DNA of 38,730 nt, taken from NCBI GenBank assembly GCA_036279815.1, contig DASUIJ010000206.1, positions 1 through 38,730 on the forward strand. The letters are read 5' to 3'. The notes under the pieces are model-generated. The model had not been told where the DNA came from. It saw nothing but the letters and a program-made list of their open reading frames with translations, and did not search any database. This document shows positions 15,999 to 21,944 of the stretch, in pieces. The DNA comes from Phenylobacterium sp. (lineage in GTDB: Bacteria > Pseudomonadota > Alphaproteobacteria > Caulobacterales > Caulobacteraceae). Both the position numbers and the translations under genes were made by a program. Position 1 is the stretch's first letter. Each line of letters begins with the position of its first letter.

Positions 15999-16937
15999 TC
16001 AGAACACCGAACCCGGTCCTTTCCACATGCCGGCCACCAGGGCGGCGAAGAGGAGCAGCCCGGCCATGCTGTTGGATTTGAACAACTTGAGTGCGCCCTT
16101 GCCGTCGCGGACGTCAAGCGCCGCCGCCTGGCGCGACAACGAGACGCCGAACAGGGCGGCGGGGGGCAGGAAAAGAGGCCCCAGGCCTCCCGCCCAGGCG
16201 CAGGCCAGCGCCAGGACGAAGGCCGCCACATAGAAGCCCAGCACCGCCTTGGGCGCGGCGTCGCCCAGTCTCAGGGCCGAGGATTTCACCCCCGCCAGGG
16301 CGTCGTCCTCCAGGTCCTGGACGGCGTAGATGGTGTCGTAGCCGAGGGTCCAGAGCACGCCGCTCGCATAGAGCAGGATCGCCGGCCAGCCGAGGGTTCC
16401 AGTGGCCGCCGCGAAGCCCAGCAGGGCCCCCCAGTTGAAGGTGAGGCCCAGCCAGGCCTGCGGCCACCAGGTGATCCGCTTCATGAACGGATAGCCGGCC
16501 ACCAGTGCCAGGGAGCCCACCCCCAGGCCGATGGCCAGGGGCGGCATGGTCAGCAGGATGGCCAGCGAGACCAGCGCGCAGCCGGCGATGAAGGCCCAGG
16601 CCTGCTTGACGCTGATCTGGCCTGACGGGATCGGCCGGCCGGCGGTGCGCGCCACCTTGGCGTCGAAGTCGCGGTCGACGATGTCGTTGTAGGCGCAGCC
16701 GGCCGCGCGCATCAGGGCGGCGCCCACGAACACTTCGGCGAGCAGCAGCCAGCTGGGCCAGACGCCCTTCATGGCGGCCGCCAGGGCGAGGCCCTGCCAG
16801 CCCGGCAACATCAGCAGCCAGATCCCCGTCGGCCGGTCGAAACGTCCGAGCCTCAGCCAGGGGCGCAGTCCCGCCGGCGCGAACCGGTCGACCCAGTTGG
16901 CGGGAGCGGCGTCGGGAAGCGGAGAGGCGGTGGTCAT
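15999..16937 (-). CDS. ubiA: 4-hydroxybenzoate polyprenyltransferase
   Basis: RFDRPTG, NDIVDRDFDAKVART-x-x-RP, YPFMKR, YDTIYAVQDLEDD. Confidence 0.95.
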   Translation of the reverse strand: MTTASPLPDAAPANWVDRFAPAGLRPWLRLGRFDRPTGIWLLMLPGWQGLALAAAMKGVWPSWLLLAEVFVGAALMRAAGCAYNDIVDRDFDAKVARTAGRPIPSGQISVKQAWAFIAGCALVSLAILLTMPPLAIGLGVGSLALVAGYPFMKRITWWPQAWLGLTFNWGALLGFAAATGTLGWPAILLYASGVLWTLGYDTIYAVQDLEDDALAGVKSSALRLGDAAPKAVLGFYVAAFVLALACAWAGGLGPLFLPPAALFGVSLSRQAAALDVRDGKGALKLFKSNSMAGLLLFAALVAGMWKGPGSVF

Positions 16938-17024
16938 GGCGAAGTTCTAGCCCGATCTCGCGCGCCGCTCATCCCCCGATCGTGGCTTTCGCGCCGCAGT
17001 TCAGATTTCGCGTAACAACGTATG

Positions 17025-17053
17025 TTGACGCACGATTCATGCCCGCCTAGCTT
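17025..17053 (+). promoter_or_regulatory. Sigma70-type promoter of the leader-ABC locus
   Basis: TTGACG (17025-17030), 17 nt spacer, TAGCTT (17048-17053). Overlapped by an imperfect palindrome GCGTAACA-ACGTA-TGTTGACGC. Confidence 0.7.
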
Positions 17054-17095
17054 CCCGGCGTCCTCAACGACAAGCGGAAAGGAGGGTCGACCAAG

Positions 17096-17149
17096 ATGAT
17101 TGCCATCGCAACGAACGACCTCCGCCGCGTCGCCCGACCGCGATTCTAG
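17096..17149 (+). CDS. Putative 17-aa leader peptide (uORF) MIAIATNDLRRVARPRF
   Basis: Near-perfect SD AAAGGAGG at 17078-17085, ATG at 17096, TAG at 17147-17149. Lies between the promoter and the ABC gene, which itself lacks a clear SD. Confidence 0.7.
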   Translation: MIAIATNDLRRVARPRF

Positions 17150-17319
17150 ACACACGGAATCCAGGGGCCGGCGCCTGATTGGCTCCCCGCTCCAAGGTTT
17201 CTCCCCGTGTTCCCGCGATCCCGCTGGCGTCCTGCGCCCAAGCGCCCCTTCCAGACCCATCCCGACGTGAGCGCGCCTGTCCGCGCCGTCTCCGTCGCCC
17301 ATAGACATCGACGGTTCCC

Positions 17320-19107
17320 ATGACCGATTCCCATGAAGACGAAGACGAAAACCGACCCCGCGTCCTGACCAATATCCAGGTCCTGGAATATTTCTGGCGC
17401 CACTGGATGGTGGAGCCCGGCCGTTTCGCGACCATCGCCGTTCTGATCCTGGCCTCGACGGTCTGCGACGCCTCGATCCCCTGGGCGACGCGGGGCCTGA
17501 TCAATGCGGTCTCGGCGCCCGAGCACCCCACGCGGACCGCCTGGATCGCCTGGGCCAGCCTGTCCGGGCTGTACCTGGCCTTCTACCTGCTCCGCTCGGG
17601 GATGTTCCGGCTGAGCAACGGCTTCTACTCGCGCATCATGGCCCGCATCGTCTCCGAGGGCTTCCAGCGGGTGCAGTCGTTCTCCTCGGACTGGCACGCC
17701 TCGAACTTCGCCGGGGCCACCGTGCGGCGGGTCAGCCGGGCCATGTGGGGCGCCGACAGCGCCTTCGACGCCCTGCTGCTGATGCTGACGCCCACCGTGC
17801 TCGTGCTGTCGGCGCTGGCGGTGTCGATCGGCCTGCGCTGGCCGGTGGCCGGCCTGTTCGTGGCCGCCCTGATCGTGGTGTTCGCGGTCTACAATGTGCT
17901 GGTTTCGACCTTCTACATCCGCCCGGCCAACCTGGCCTCCACAGCGCTGGACTCCGGCATCGGGGCCAATCTGGCCGACGCCATCGGCGCCAATCCGGTG
18001 GTCAAGGGCTTCGGCGCCGAGACCCGCGAGGAGGCGCGCTTCAACGCCCATATCGAGACGTGGCGGAAGGCCCAGAACGAGACCTGGGACCGCTTCAACC
18101 TCGTGGGCGTCGGCCAGAACCTTTTCCTGGTGCTGCTGCAGGCGGGGCTGACCGGCCTGCTGGTCAACGCCTGGTCCAAGGGCCAGGCCACCGCCGGGGA
18201 CGTGGCCTTCGCCATCACCTCGTTCATCGTCATGGCCGGGTACATGCGGAACTTCTCGGAGATCACCCGCATGCTGCAGAAGGGCCTGGACGACAGCCTG
18301 GACGTCGCCACCTACATGCGCACCGAGCCCCAGCTGAGGGACCGTCCCGGCGCGCCGGAGTTCCGCGGCGAACTGGGACAGGTGGTCTTCGACAAGGTGA
18401 CCTTCGGCTACGAGAAGCAGGGCTATCCGCTCTACGAGAACTTCAGCCTCGTGGTGGCGCCCGGCGAGCGGGTGGCGCTGGTGGGCTCCACGGGGGCGGG
18501 CAAGTCCACCTTCGTGAAGCTGATCCAGCGGCTCTACGATGTGCAGGAAGGCCGCATCCTGATCGACGGGCAGGACATCGCCCACGTCGCCCAGGGCTCG
18601 CTGCGGCGCGCCATCGCCGTGGTGCCGCAGGACCCCGCCCTGTTCCACCGCTCCATCGCCGAGAACATCGGCTATGCGCGGCCGGACGCGACCCGGGACG
18701 AGATCATGCTGGCGGCCCGACGGGCCCGCGCGCACGACTTCATCGCCAGGCTGCCCAAGGGCTACGACACCCTGGTCGGCGAGCGGGGCGTGAAGCTGTC
18801 GGGCGGGGAGCGCCAGCGGGTGGCGATCGCCAGGGCCTTCCTGGCGGACGCCCCGATCCTGGTGCTGGACGAGGCCACTTCGTCCCTGGACGTGGAGACC
18901 GAGCGTCTGGTGCAGGCGGCGATGGAAGAGCTGATGGTGGGGCGCACCACCGTGGTGATCGCCCACCGCCTGTCGACCATCCGCGGCGCCGACCGCATCC
19001 TGGTGTTCGAGGAGGGCCGCATCGTCGAGGAGGGTCGCCACCACGACCTGGTGACCAAGGGCGGCGCCTATGCCCGCCTGCACGCGGTGACGGAGGCGCA
19101 CGCATGA
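17320..19107 (+). CDS. Multidrug/peptide-type ABC exporter, fused TMD-NBD, paralog 1
   Basis: GSTGAGKS, LSGGERQ, ILVLDE, SSLD, AHRL; TMD contains FSSDWHASNFAGATVR; 595 aa. Confidence 0.93.
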   Translation: MTDSHEDEDENRPRVLTNIQVLEYFWRHWMVEPGRFATIAVLILASTVCDASIPWATRGLINAVSAPEHPTRTAWIAWASLSGLYLAFYLLRSGMFRLSNGFYSRIMARIVSEGFQRVQSFSSDWHASNFAGATVRRVSRAMWGADSAFDALLLMLTPTVLVLSALAVSIGLRWPVAGLFVAALIVVFAVYNVLVSTFYIRPANLASTALDSGIGANLADAIGANPVVKGFGAETREEARFNAHIETWRKAQNETWDRFNLVGVGQNLFLVLLQAGLTGLLVNAWSKGQATAGDVAFAITSFIVMAGYMRNFSEITRMLQKGLDDSLDVATYMRTEPQLRDRPGAPEFRGELGQVVFDKVTFGYEKQGYPLYENFSLVVAPGERVALVGSTGAGKSTFVKLIQRLYDVQEGRILIDGQDIAHVAQGSLRRAIAVVPQDPALFHRSIAENIGYARPDATRDEIMLAARRARAHDFIARLPKGYDTLVGERGVKLSGGERQRVAIARAFLADAPILVLDEATSSLDVETERLVQAAMEELMVGRTTVVIAHRLSTIRGADRILVFEEGRIVEEGRHHDLVTKGGAYARLHAVTEAHA

Positions 19108-21107
19108 GCCGCCTGATCCGCTGGGCGCGGGCCTTCGCCCGCGCCGTCGCCCGCGACGGGGTGTGGGTCTATGCGCCGCCCCTGGTCATCTCCGCCGCCA
19201 GCCCGCTGTGGCGGGCGGCGCCGCCGCCGCGCATCGCGGAAGAACCCGCCCCGGCGCCGGCGACGGCGACGGACCCGCAGTCGGTCGCCGCGCGGCGGGC
19301 CGGCCTGCGGCTCATCATCGGATTCCAGAGCCTCACATGACCGAGCACTACGAAGACAACGAGGAGGTCAGGACGCGGGTGCTGTCGAACGCCCAGGTGC
19401 TGGGGTTCATCGCCCGGTTCTGGATGCGGCGGCCCCTGCTGATGGTGGGGGTGACGGTCTTCACCCTGGGCTCCATCGCCCTGGACATGGCGCTGCCCTG
19501 GGCGTCCGGCCGGCTGGTGGACGCCGTGGCGGCGGGCCCGAGCGGCATCCCTGAGGCCTGGAGCGCCTGGGGGCTGTTCGTCGGCGTCTATCTGGCCATG
19601 GCCCTGGTCCGCAACGCGGCCAACAAGTTCTGGATTCCGGTGGCCGCCCGCAACATGCGCGACATGACCGACGAGGGGTTCGCCCGCGTCCAGTCGTTCT
19701 CGGCCGACTGGCACGCCGACGCCTTCGCCGGCGCCACCGTGCGGCGGCTCAGCCGGGCCATGTGGGGCTATGACGTCGTGTCGGACGCCGTGGTCATGTG
19801 GATCGGCCCGGCCGTGCTGGTGCTGGTCGGGCTGTCGGTGATGATGATCCTGCGCTGGCCGATGGTGGGGCTGTTCTCCCTGGCCATCGTCAGCCTCTAC
19901 ATCCTCTCGAACGTGGTCCTCACCTCGAAGTTCGGACGCCCGCTGAACCTGAAGTCGGTGGGGCTGGATTCGCGGATCGGCGGCGCCCTGGCCGATTCCA
20001 TCACCGCCAACGCCACGGTGCGCAGCTTCGGCGCCGAGGACCGCGAGAGCGCGCGGATCGGCGGCGTCACCGAGATGTGGCGGGTGGCGATCATCAGGAC
20101 CTGGAACAGGTTCACCGATATCTGGCTGGTCCAGAACCTGCTGCTCACCGCCCTGCAGGCCGGGCTGACCGGCCTGCTGATCCGGCTGTGGATCCGGGGC
20201 GAGGCGACGGCCGGCGACGTGGCCTTCGGGATCACCGCCTTCATGCTGATGAGCGGCTATCTGCGCAATGTGGGCGACAACATCCGCATGCTGCAGAAGG
20301 GCCTCGACGACGTGGAGGACGTGGCCCGCTACGAGCGCACCGAGCCCCAGGTGGCCGATGCGGCGGACGCCAGGCCGCTGACGGGCGAACTCGGCGAGAT
20401 CGTCTTCGACCACGCGACCTTCCGCTACAAGTCCGTTCCCGAGCCGCTGTTCAAGGACTTCTCGCTCACCATCCGGCCGGGCGAGCGGGTGGCGCTGGTC
20501 GGGCCGACGGGGGCGGGCAAGTCCACCTTCGTCAAGCTGGTGCAGCGCCTCTACGACCTGGAGGAGGGCCGCATCCTGATCGACCGCCAGGACGTGGCGC
20601 ACGTGACCCAGAACAGCCTGCGCCGCGCCATCGCCGTGGTGCCGCAGGACCCGGCCCTGTTCCACCGGACCATCGCCGAGAACATCGCCTATGCCCGGCC
20701 CGAAGCCACGGCCGACGAGATCGAACTGGCGGCCCGCCGGGCCCGCGCGCACGACTTCATCGCCAGGCTGCCCAAGGGCTACGACACCCTGGTGGGCGAG
20801 CGGGGCGTGAAGCTCTCGGGGGGCGAGCGCCAGCGGGTGGCGATCGCCAGGGCCTTCCTGGCGGACGCCCCGATCCTGGTCCTGGACGAGGCCACTTCGT
20901 CCCTGGACGTGGAGACCGAGCGTCTGGTGCAGGCGGCGATGGAGGAGCTGATGGTCGGGCGCACCACCATCGTCATCGCCCACCGCCTGTCGACCATCCG
21001 CGGCGCCGACCGGATCCTGGTGTTCGAGGACGGCCGCATCGTCGAGGAGGGGCGCCATGCGGAGCTGGTGGCCAAGGGCGGCGCCTATGCCCGACTGCAC
21101 GCCGTGA
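18709..21107 (+). repeat. Near-identical direct repeat of NBD-coding DNA (about 18709-19090 vs about 20726-21107)
   Basis: Long identical runs at a constant 2017-nt offset, e.g. ctggacgaggccacttcgtccctggacgtggagaccgagcgtctggtgcaggcggcgatgga in both copies. Confidence 0.85.
19104..19340 (+). CDS. 78-aa hypothetical protein translationally coupled to both ABC genes
   Basis: MSRLIRWARAFARAVARDGVWVYAPPLVISAASPLWRAAPPPRIAEEPAPAPATATDPQSVAARRAGLRLIIGFQSLT. ATGA overlaps at 19104-19107 and 19337-19340; GGAGG at 19092-19096. Confidence 0.65.
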   Translation: MSRLIRWARAFARAVARDGVWVYAPPLVISAASPLWRAAPPPRIAEEPAPAPATATDPQSVAARRAGLRLIIGFQSLT

Positions 21108-21124
21108 CCCTGGGCGCGGGCTAG
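19337..21124 (+). CDS. Multidrug/peptide-type ABC exporter, fused TMD-NBD, paralog 2
   Basis: Start at MTEHYEDNEE gives 595 aa, colinear with paralog 1; GPTGAGKS, LSGGERQ, ILVLDE, AHRL. Confidence 0.93.
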   Translation: MTEHYEDNEEVRTRVLSNAQVLGFIARFWMRRPLLMVGVTVFTLGSIALDMALPWASGRLVDAVAAGPSGIPEAWSAWGLFVGVYLAMALVRNAANKFWIPVAARNMRDMTDEGFARVQSFSADWHADAFAGATVRRLSRAMWGYDVVSDAVVMWIGPAVLVLVGLSVMMILRWPMVGLFSLAIVSLYILSNVVLTSKFGRPLNLKSVGLDSRIGGALADSITANATVRSFGAEDRESARIGGVTEMWRVAIIRTWNRFTDIWLVQNLLLTALQAGLTGLLIRLWIRGEATAGDVAFGITAFMLMSGYLRNVGDNIRMLQKGLDDVEDVARYERTEPQVADAADARPLTGELGEIVFDHATFRYKSVPEPLFKDFSLTIRPGERVALVGPTGAGKSTFVKLVQRLYDLEEGRILIDRQDVAHVTQNSLRRAIAVVPQDPALFHRTIAENIAYARPEATADEIELAARRARAHDFIARLPKGYDTLVGERGVKLSGGERQRVAIARAFLADAPILVLDEATSSLDVETERLVQAAMEELMVGRTTIVIAHRLSTIRGADRILVFEDGRIVEEGRHAELVAKGGAYARLHAVTLGAG

Positions 21125-21140: not shown

Positions 21141-21944
21141 ATGACCTACATCGAAAAAGCCGCGACCTGGCTGCGGGACCGCTTCGCCGATCCGGCCGCG
21201 GCGACCGCCAACGACCTCAATCTCGCCCTGCGGGTCCTGGCCATCTGGCGCTCGTCCACCCTGGTCGCCGAGTTCCAGCGCCACCACGGCCTGACCATCC
21301 TGCAGGGCCCCTTCGAGGGCATGGCCTATGTGGGGGCCGCCGCCGAGGGCGCGCTGCTGCCGCGCCTGATCGGGACCTATGAGCAGGAGCTGCATCCGGC
21401 GATCCGCGGGTTCGCGGCGGCGGACCTGGACTGCGTGATCGATGTGGGCTGCGCCGAGGGCTACTACGCGGTCGGCATGGCGCGGCTGATGCCCCGGGCC
21501 ACGATCTACGCCCACGACATCAACGAGAAGGCCCAGGCCGCCTGCCGCGAGCTCGCCGGGCGCAACGGCGTGGCCGAGCGGGTGGTGGTGGGCGGGATCT
21601 TCGCGCCGGAACAGTTCCAGGCCTTCGCCGAGCGCAAGTGCCTGGTGATCTGCGACATCGAGGGCGCGGAGGACGACCTGCTGCGCCCCGACCTGGCCCC
21701 GGCCCTGGCGGGGATGAACCTGATCGTCGAGGTCCACGAGGTGTACAAGCCGGGCCTGCTGGCGCGGATGATCGAGCGGTTCGAGCCCACCCATCACGTC
21801 GAACGCCTGGACATGGGGCCGCGCACCCTGCCCCTGCCCCTGTGGTTCTTCCGCAAGAACCACATGGACCAGCTGCTGGCGGTCTGGGAGTGGCGCTCGG
21901 GGCCGACGCCGTGGCTGGTCCTGAAGCCGAAGACGGCGCCTTAG
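21141..21944 (+). CDS. Class I SAM-dependent methyltransferase (FkbM-like features)
   Basis: GTYEQELH, VIDVGCAEGYY, ICDIEGAE, IVEVH. Confidence 0.8.
   Translation: MTYIEKAATWLRDRFADPAAATANDLNLALRVLAIWRSSTLVAEFQRHHGLTILQGPFEGMAYVGAAAEGALLPRLIGTYEQELHPAIRGFAAADLDCVIDVGCAEGYYAVGMARLMPRATIYAHDINEKAQAACRELAGRNGVAERVVVGGIFAPEQFQAFAERKCLVICDIEGAEDDLLRPDLAPALAGMNLIVEVHEVYKPGLLARMIERFEPTHHVERLDMGPRTLPLPLWFFRKNHMDQLLAVWEWRSGPTPWLVLKPKTAP

Follow-up and report, generated by a model that had tools for sequence, protein, structure and literature searches.

A candidate translation-stress attenuator with two upstream reading frames and a coupling relay ahead of a duplicated ABC exporter operon in Phenylobacterium sp.

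Contig DASUIJ010000206.1 of Phenylobacterium sp. (GCA_036279815.1), of which a stretch of 38,730 nucleotides was analysed (the window), carries two adjacent genes for ATP-binding cassette (ABC) exporters, ABC1 and ABC2, preceded by a promoter-like site and a short upstream open reading frame (uORF) with a strong Shine-Dalgarno sequence (SD). The locus raises the question of what this leader does and what it responds to. A preliminary description had proposed that the peptide of the uORF senses translation inhibitors, or the speed of Arg/Pro decoding, and thereby switches on the exporters. The comparative sequence analysis presented here favours, with moderate confidence, an attenuator that answers translation stress through two uORFs (uORF1 and uORF2) and a coupling relay to exporter genes that lack an SD, the trigger probably being broad ribosome inhibition and not macrolides in particular.

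The promoter-like hexamers, the near-perfect SD (SD1) and the 17-codon frame closing on CGA CCG CGA TTC TAG were found just as first described, and the hexamers are conserved in orthologs. A short SD-led uORF lay upstream of ABC1 in 107 of 108 orthologs, with a strong SD, an ORF of 12-40 codons and an upstream TTG(A/C)C occurring together (span 1300 nt; at least 500 nt of upstream sequence was required, for which 12 more loci were too short; redundant loci were retained). In the 3.47-Mb genome itself, the combination of a -35/-10-like site, a strong SD and a 6-45-codon ORF occurs at just two places, here and before rsgA, yet it accompanies nearly all orthologs, and the arrangement therefore goes beyond chance. 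At distant loci, from other Alphaproteobacteria to Burkholderiaceae, an SD-led uORF was seen in 20 of 38 cases against 3.4 expected from shuffles, using an SD list that was relaxed after inspection and applied identically to the control. Judged by this conservation, the uORF1 leader is real and conserved. A scan with an E. coli-type sigma-70 consensus called 0 promoters, the site at 17025..17053 included; we regard the site as a putative promoter because it is conserved and fits the Caulobacter sigma-70 consensus. No Rfam covariance model matched 16800-17500 at E values up to 5, and a DNA pattern scan across 301 genomes returned mostly chance hits in coding DNA.

How could such a leader act on a gene without an SD? 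The spacer between uORF1 and ABC1 is 170 nt long, as had been stated, and it is not the non-coding stretch that it was taken for: uORF2 lies inside it. A caller blind to reading frame found SD2 and a start codon in 65 of 96 leaders, and removal of those more than 90% alike left the 51 leaders counted below. In 47 of the 51 the frame of uORF2 that overlaps the ABC gene is kept, ending in ATGA in 46, and the distance from the uORF2 start to the ABC ATG takes 19 different lengths, from 47 to 212 nt. Over the uORF2 stretch the overlap frame contains a stop in 1 of 51 leaders, compared to 22 and 19 in the other two frames. Among disjoint sister pairs taken from the ABC protein tree, 11 of 15 length changes in uORF2 were multiples of 3, as against 2 of 19 in the promoter-to-uORF1 control, and none of 5000 runs of a tree simulation of frame keeping reached the observed count. 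Only 5 of the 51 relatives have an SD-like motif ahead of the ABC start. The chain of ATGA overlaps continues downstream. Two duplicated exporter genes are indeed present (64% identity overall, 49% in the membrane domain), with the correction that a 78-aa ORF lies between them, so that the window has overlaps at uORF2-ABC1, ABC1-ORF78 and ORF78-ABC2; in most relatives ABC1 overlaps ABC2 directly.

The start of uORF2 is in turn predicted to be buried in a hairpin. SD2 is mostly paired in 50 of the 51 predicted structures, and when the arms of this hairpin were swapped within 25 sister pairs, in non-overlapping segments, own arms paired better in 16 and swapped arms in 4. The predicted structure thus resembles that of ermC in that a hairpin sequesters a downstream ribosome binding site (RBS).

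The genome holds a second copy of this leader (G000:C261, minus strand, uORF start 2859, locus L299), before rsgA. There the -35 and -10 hexamers and the SD are the same as in the window, and the GTG start of rsgA follows 55 nt past the uORF stop. A module of promoter, SD1, uORF, hairpin and AAGGAC stands directly before rsgA at 15 of 30 family loci identified by script, and in the genome of the window as well; L322, whose start was miscalled, was excluded from the rsgA leader set. At rsgA loci elsewhere in the class an SD-led short ORF was present in 9 of 29, a raw count made without a control. RsgA is a 30S-dependent ribosome GTPase.

The peptide of uORF1 does not behave like a sensor. That ribosomes would arrest on it at an R-P-R end, or slow at CGA codons, in response to macrolides or to Arg/Pro decoding speed had been suggested by the window itself, where the peptide contains R-P-R and two CGA codons, and ketolides are reported to stall chiefly at R/K-x-R/K (PMC8298421). 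Among the 80 distinct uORF1 peptides of the 96 leaders, R/K-x-R/K occurs in 38, which is the level of shuffled peptides (mean 39, sd 3.8), lies within the last five residues in 7 and takes the form of an RPRF end in 2; CGA occurs at all in just 15 of 51 uORF1s. The macrolide-motif and CGA reading fails because the motif is at shuffle level and RPRF is found in 2 of 80 peptides, and we saw no conserved drug-specific arrest motif of the ermC type. CGA does make up 8% of Arg codons in uORF1s compared to 4% in the ABC genes, and a stall at R-P-R would be near the stop, where the hairpin is predicted to open more easily; the highest of the predicted opening costs (15-16.5 kcal/mol), however, arises when codons 11-13 occupy the P site. 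Altogether we consider peptide-specific arrest unlikely.

What is conserved in uORF1 looks instead to act at the level of RNA. Leu at codons 7-11 is encoded by CTC in 40 of 51 cases, whereas the ABC genes favour CTG over CTC by 1024:300, and a CCCTCC-like anti-SD, the predicted partner of SD1, accounts for the 'LR' residues of the peptide. In 34 of 51 ABC leaders and 10 of 14 rsgA leaders this anti-SD begins 22 nt past the start codon. Of the 35 peptides that end near 'DR', 33 use CGG for the Arg, and in the codon before it the last two bases are fixed while the residue changes, in a stretch complementary to the spacer. Pairing of SD1 with the anti-SD receives modest support against shuffles (median z -1.0).

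From these elements the following switch can be proposed. In the OFF state uORF1 would be translated, its ribosome quickly released, and the hairpin would shut over SD2 and the GTG; the untranslated C-rich leader would then likely let Rho end transcription, in keeping with its base composition (C 40-46%, G 25-28%) and its lack of an intrinsic terminator. In the ON state a ribosome held on uORF1 would mask the C-rich codons and, in many relatives, free the 3' end of uORF1 to capture the 5' arm of the hairpin. In the window the predicted route is that a ribosome dwelling at the stop, or passing it, melts the base of the hairpin. Once opened, uORF2 would hand its ribosomes to ABC1 via the ATGA overlap, so that sensing would rest on RNA geometry and ribosome position and not on the peptide. 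When ribosome footprints were masked, the predicted cost of opening the RBS of uORF2 in the 51 leaders had a median of 12.2 kcal/mol with the 3' end of uORF1 covered, 8.1 with it free, 7.5 when a ribosome sits at the stop and 5.8 once it has read through; the corresponding values for the window were 13.9, 11.6, 8.5 and 4.6 kcal/mol. Set against 20 shuffles each, 24 of the 51 leaders had an alternative pairing of the uORF1 3' end that was better than 19 or more of them. The model thus predicts that an ermC-like alternative pairing is open to many relatives and that in the window the response depends chiefly on a ribosome that has reached or passed the stop.

A rival account would rest on Rho alone. 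In pure Rho-dependent attenuation of the duf1127-1 type, the C-rich uORF1 codons and the stretch downstream would form a rut site that is blocked by a ribosome stuck at the start, and uORF2 would provide nothing beyond constitutive coupling. Such a mechanism has been demonstrated for duf1127-1 of S. meliloti (PMC12218461), and the sequence features shared by duf1127-1 and toiL leaders, C-rich uORF codons pairing with the RBS and a stretch of C>G composition downstream, are present here. Neither is there a terminator of the bmrB or PA5471.1 type, since no intrinsic terminator with a U-run was found in 17150-17320, and a terminator scan returned a single weak 5-pair match inside ABC1, at chance level. 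Distant relatives, including a tetracycline-induced gene of S. meliloti, moreover have uORF1 but no coupled uORF2. Rho-dependent attenuation by itself, however, gives no reason for the burial of SD2 by a co-adapted hairpin in 50 of 51 leaders, or for the presence of the same hairpin over the rsgA start, and we consider it improbable as the whole explanation.

The S. meliloti gene also bears on what the attenuator with two uORFs may sense. A relative of ABC1 lies on pSymB of S. meliloti 2011 (SM2011_b20941 / SM2011_RS11895, L251) behind an SD-led 14-codon uORF with pairing between the SD and C-rich codons, and it rises 3.7-fold (log2 fold change 1.89, adjusted P 1.2e-26) after 10 min of tetracycline, within the top-30 list of supplement file 6 of PMC12218461. 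The genes downstream, queC and queD, which serve queuosine tRNA modification, show log2 fold changes of 0.94 and 0.99 in the same dataset (PMC12218461). We take the tetracycline rise as support, not proof, of a response to translation stress, to which the leader is tied because the same module precedes rsgA and this relative is induced. Thus the proposed uORF attenuator answering translation stress stands, on the conserved SD and uORF, the rsgA module and the S. meliloti rise, while sensing by the peptide through R-P-R, CGA or Arg/Pro decoding does not. SM2011_b20941 is named exsA by its position beside an epimerase gene and queC (exsB) and from a cited title, not from an annotation row. The word exsA is absent from the main text of PMC12218461, the literature searched contained no text with the term SMb20941, and the main text of the uRBS preprint does not mention the gene; the S. 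meliloti uORF has no row among those listed in the Ribo-seq supplement PMC10117765, which does not imply its absence. Another S. meliloti ABC transporter gene, SM2011_RS23660, has a log2 fold change of 2.23 in tetracycline and two small ORFs reported upstream (PMC12218461), and is possibly a parallel case of a two-uORF leader.

One feature of the leader suggests a further route to the exporter. In the window a single open frame runs from 17096 to the ATGA, broken by one TAG, and uORF1 and uORF2 are in frame in 39 of 51 leaders (tree simulation P 0.0006). When 87 of the 96 leaders were considered (9 with an inserted ORF or an unsure start were excluded), the read-through frame of the 68 non-redundant ones reached the ATGA junction in 42 and fused into the ABC frame in 11, being productive in 53 in all, and halted within the leader in 5. 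Of the remaining two frames, one was productive in 10 and the other in 7 of 68, counts that become 14 and 32 when the first 9 nt are left out. Among the 17 leaders in which no uORF2 was called, 12 had a productive read-through frame, and in L031, a locus of the closest relative type, GTG and ATGA are both lost and yet the frame reads straight into ABC1. In contrast, the rsgA leaders, which have the same hairpin, are in frame in 3 of 14 and productive in 4 of 14, with a stop that is mostly UAG; since they show no preference, hairpin geometry alone does not force the frame pattern. The stop of uORF1 is UGA-C in 46 of 51 ABC leaders, compared to about 17% in a crude genome count, and UGA-C is a leaky stop. 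An out-of-frame stop 2 nt past the uORF1 stop (31 of 51 leaders) was also considered and taken as a by-product of the hairpin loop and not as a signal.

The simplest reading of this frame pattern may be read-through, either as a basal leak or as a signal, which we hold as a tentative proposal. As a signal, ribosomes that pass the uORF1 stop would unwind the hairpin and continue in frame to the ABC1 start, and the pumps would be turned on by miscoding drugs or by inhibition of release factors; such a sensor of termination could add to the attenuator described above. Several observations count against it: the stop of the window is UAG-A and not UGA-C, 12 of 51 leaders are out of frame, the UGAC is perhaps kept for pairing with a downstream GUC, and a test on sister pairs confined to the spacer was weak, with 9 of 18 length changes being multiples of 3. 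The ABC set of leaders is also related to the rsgA set, so that Fisher tests comparing the two overstate the difference. We therefore regard the idea that ribosomes report on termination in this way as possible but less probable than not, and give no higher standing to the wider proposal that selection keeps the frame through uORF1, spacer and uORF2 as a stop-codon read-through sensor, with the same module controlling rsgA free of frame.

A number of results weigh against the attenuator with relay. No uORF1 was called for 68 members of the exporter family in Caulobacteraceae, and no SD2 and start for 31 of the 96 leaders; kinship among the relatives makes P values optimistic. As regards structure, RNAalifold gave no consensus for the leaders, column covariation in both helices (2:3 and 3:4) was not above shuffles, and the whole leader of the window folds no better than shuffles (z -0.35). 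Across the leaders the alternative pairing receives weak support (11 vs 7 sister pairs, median z -0.4), and it is unsupported in the window, where 11 of 20 shuffles were equally good. SM2011_b20941 has about 35% identity to ABC1 in the membrane domain and no ATGA-coupled uORF2, and the authors of the tetracycline study ascribe many of the rises to mRNA stabilisation of first genes (PMC12218461). Two public RNA runs matched at 0.04-0.06 of the words and yielded contigs from relatives only.

Many single-copy members of the family have no such leader (L008-L030, L099-L155). A -10-like hexamer lies 5-8 nt before the ATG in 14 of the 68 uORF-less members and in 0 of the 96 leader-bearing ones, which suggests from sequence that such members have leaderless mRNAs; leaderless relatives may be the reason that the ABC gene has no SD. 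The broader proposition that most uORF-less members are leaderless was borne out only in part, by these 14 of 68. At 16 loci (L041, L044, L046-L048, L050, L053-L057, L062, L069, L070, L085, L087) a methyltransferase-like gene (class I SAM, from a motif recognised by eye) separates the leader from ABC1; the uORF then stands ahead of the inserted gene, starts with GTG and is followed by a different spacer. At L007, L059, L071 and L195 a distance of 370 nt lies between leader and ABC1 and contains an additional small ORF.

The small ORFs might also code for functional or secreted peptides that the ABC pair exports, or they might be incidental. ABC exporters of this class are able to move peptides. 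In three genomes (L292, G021:C15; L285, G043:C13; L332, G023:C6) the leader stands before a stand-alone ORF of 59-69 aa with shared residues, and in the same genomes the ABC exporter query was unmatched. However, uORF1 (about 14-37 codons) and uORF2 (16-70) vary in length and sequence while frame and RNA motifs stay, no peptidase domain or modifying enzymes were found with Pfam and NCBIfam, and the module also sits before rsgA, making this the most improbable of the explanations considered.

Table 1. Features of the leader and exporter operon in the window.
Feature	Coordinates	Strand	Description
Predicted sigma-70-like promoter	17025..17053	+	-35 TTGACG (17025-17030), 17-nt spacing, -10 TAGCTT (17048-17053); conserved in orthologs and before rsgA
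SD1	17078..17085	+	Near-perfect Shine-Dalgarno, AAAGGAGG; invariant or nearly so in the aligned 51 leaders
uORF1	17096..17149	+	17 codons, UAG stop, peptide MIAIATNDLRRVARPRF*; predicted sensor ORF, peptide sequence varies
Anti-SD in uORF1	17117..17128	+	C-rich, codons 8-11; predicted partner of SD1, from folds
Predicted hairpin	17152..17212	+	Buries SD2 and the uORF2 GTG; -24.9 kcal/mol
SD2	17194..17197	+	AAGG (consensus of relatives AAGGAC), from alignment; same motif at the rsgA start
uORF2	17207..17323	+	38 codons, GTG start, C-rich, in frame with uORF1; TGA overlaps the ABC1 ATG (ATGA)
ABC1	17320..19107	+	ExsA-like half-transporter of the type IV ABC exporters; no SD of its own; Pfam ABC_membrane and ABC_tran
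78-aa bridging ORF	19104..19340	+	ATGA overlaps with the ABC1 stop and the ABC2 start
ABC2	19337..21124	+	Paralog of ABC1; ABC_membrane and ABC_tran; 595 aa counted from the ATG

The exporters belong with the ExsA-like proteins by homology of the membrane domain, including a WH..F.G.TVR motif. The named NCBIfam exporters (MsbA / ChvA / Atm1 / SmdAB / Tet(46)) scored 379-384 bits at best, below cut-offs of 602-780, and the nearest solved structure is an Atm1-type exporter (E 1.4e-15). Matches to the exporter family occurred in 84 of the 151 genomes from the taxonomic family and in 28 of the 301 from the class, with the closest relatives in Phenylobacterium and other Caulobacteraceae. Walker A, signature, Walker B and H-loop are intact in both ABC1 and ABC2. 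Their DNA is 85-96% identical in the ATPase halves (18520-19000 vs 20537-21017) and 53-71% in the membrane halves, with 69/81 vs 68/101 at four-fold sites and a longest identical run of 62 nt; gene conversion between the ATPase halves is possible. Compared with relatives, the ABC1 start region of L004, L060, L198 and L199 seems to be off by one base within a T run, through either an error or a real frameshift. The 78-aa ORF had 15 matches including itself, with 57-67% identity in the alignment, and matched no Pfam or NCBIfam family; its N-terminus looks amphipathic, WxYAPPL and DPxxVAARRA blocks are conserved, and besides being a coupler it may be a small accessory protein. A methyltransferase-like ORF with weak family matches (21141-21944) follows 16 nt past ABC2, and ubiA is the divergent gene at the locus.

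Antibiotic-sensing uORFs are well described in Gram-positive bacteria and for a handful of Gram-negative systems. The attenuator with relay would add a family-wide alphaproteobacterial example, in which a hidden relay ORF lets a gene without an RBS be regulated by attenuation, and it offers a lead on rsgA and on ExsA-like exporters, which are annotated as saccharide exporters and here are tied to translation stress. If the read-through path were true, this would be a bacterial leader reporting termination fidelity: miscoding antibiotics or blocked termination would send ribosomes through the hairpin to restart on the exporter or fuse into it, and the portable module would outline a factor-free translation-stress regulon of Alphaproteobacteria. 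The literature searched, whose coverage leaves most subscription journals outside, contained no description of the leader of the window and no bacterial leader reporting termination fidelity, the nearest being PepNL and the frameshift in ermC.

By analogy, the closest known mechanism for uORF1 may be that of duf1127-1, where reporters showed that a uORF with pairing between SD and C-rich codons mediates tetracycline induction via RNA and not peptide (PMC12218461). Both are alphaproteobacterial leaders with an SD-led uORF whose early C-rich codons pair with its own RBS, and a C>G stretch past the stop, where RNA rather than peptide counts; induction by tetracycline and chloramphenicol is known for duf1127-1 (PMC12218461). 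In contrast, neither a second coupled uORF nor an SD-hiding hairpin is described in that paper, and the cargo differs. ExsA of S. meliloti shares the exporter family, the SD-led uORF and tetracycline induction, but is a single gene followed by queC and queD. In E. coli, the uORF toiL upstream of topAI likewise senses several ribosome drugs, with unmasking linked to Rho termination; unlike here, toiL itself base-pairs with the RBS of the target, is conserved in its first seven residues and has no relay ORF (PMC12121999). Stalling uORFs also control or precede efflux systems in bmrCD of B. subtilis (PMC13689557) and PA5471.1 of P. aeruginosa (PMC12057347), as transcription attenuators with terminator hairpins of a kind not found here. 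PepNL of E. coli resembles the possible read-through path in that UGA read-through of a leader ORF is part of regulation (PMC11890864), but there a sequence-specific arrest peptide is relieved by read-through, whereas in the present leader ribosomes that read through would be carried on to the next gene. Finally, ermC and ermB combine a leader ORF with a hairpin over a downstream RBS; ermB requires two leader peptides, comparable to the two uORFs here, and in ermC frameshifting induced by telithromycin brings ribosomes into the spacer and unfolds it (PMC5009743; PMC8274638). In those systems the hairpin covers the RBS of the resistance gene itself and stalling depends on the peptide, whereas in Phenylobacterium the predicted hairpin covers a relay uORF whose coupled gene has no SD, the peptide varies, and ribosomes would continue in frame and not by frameshifting.

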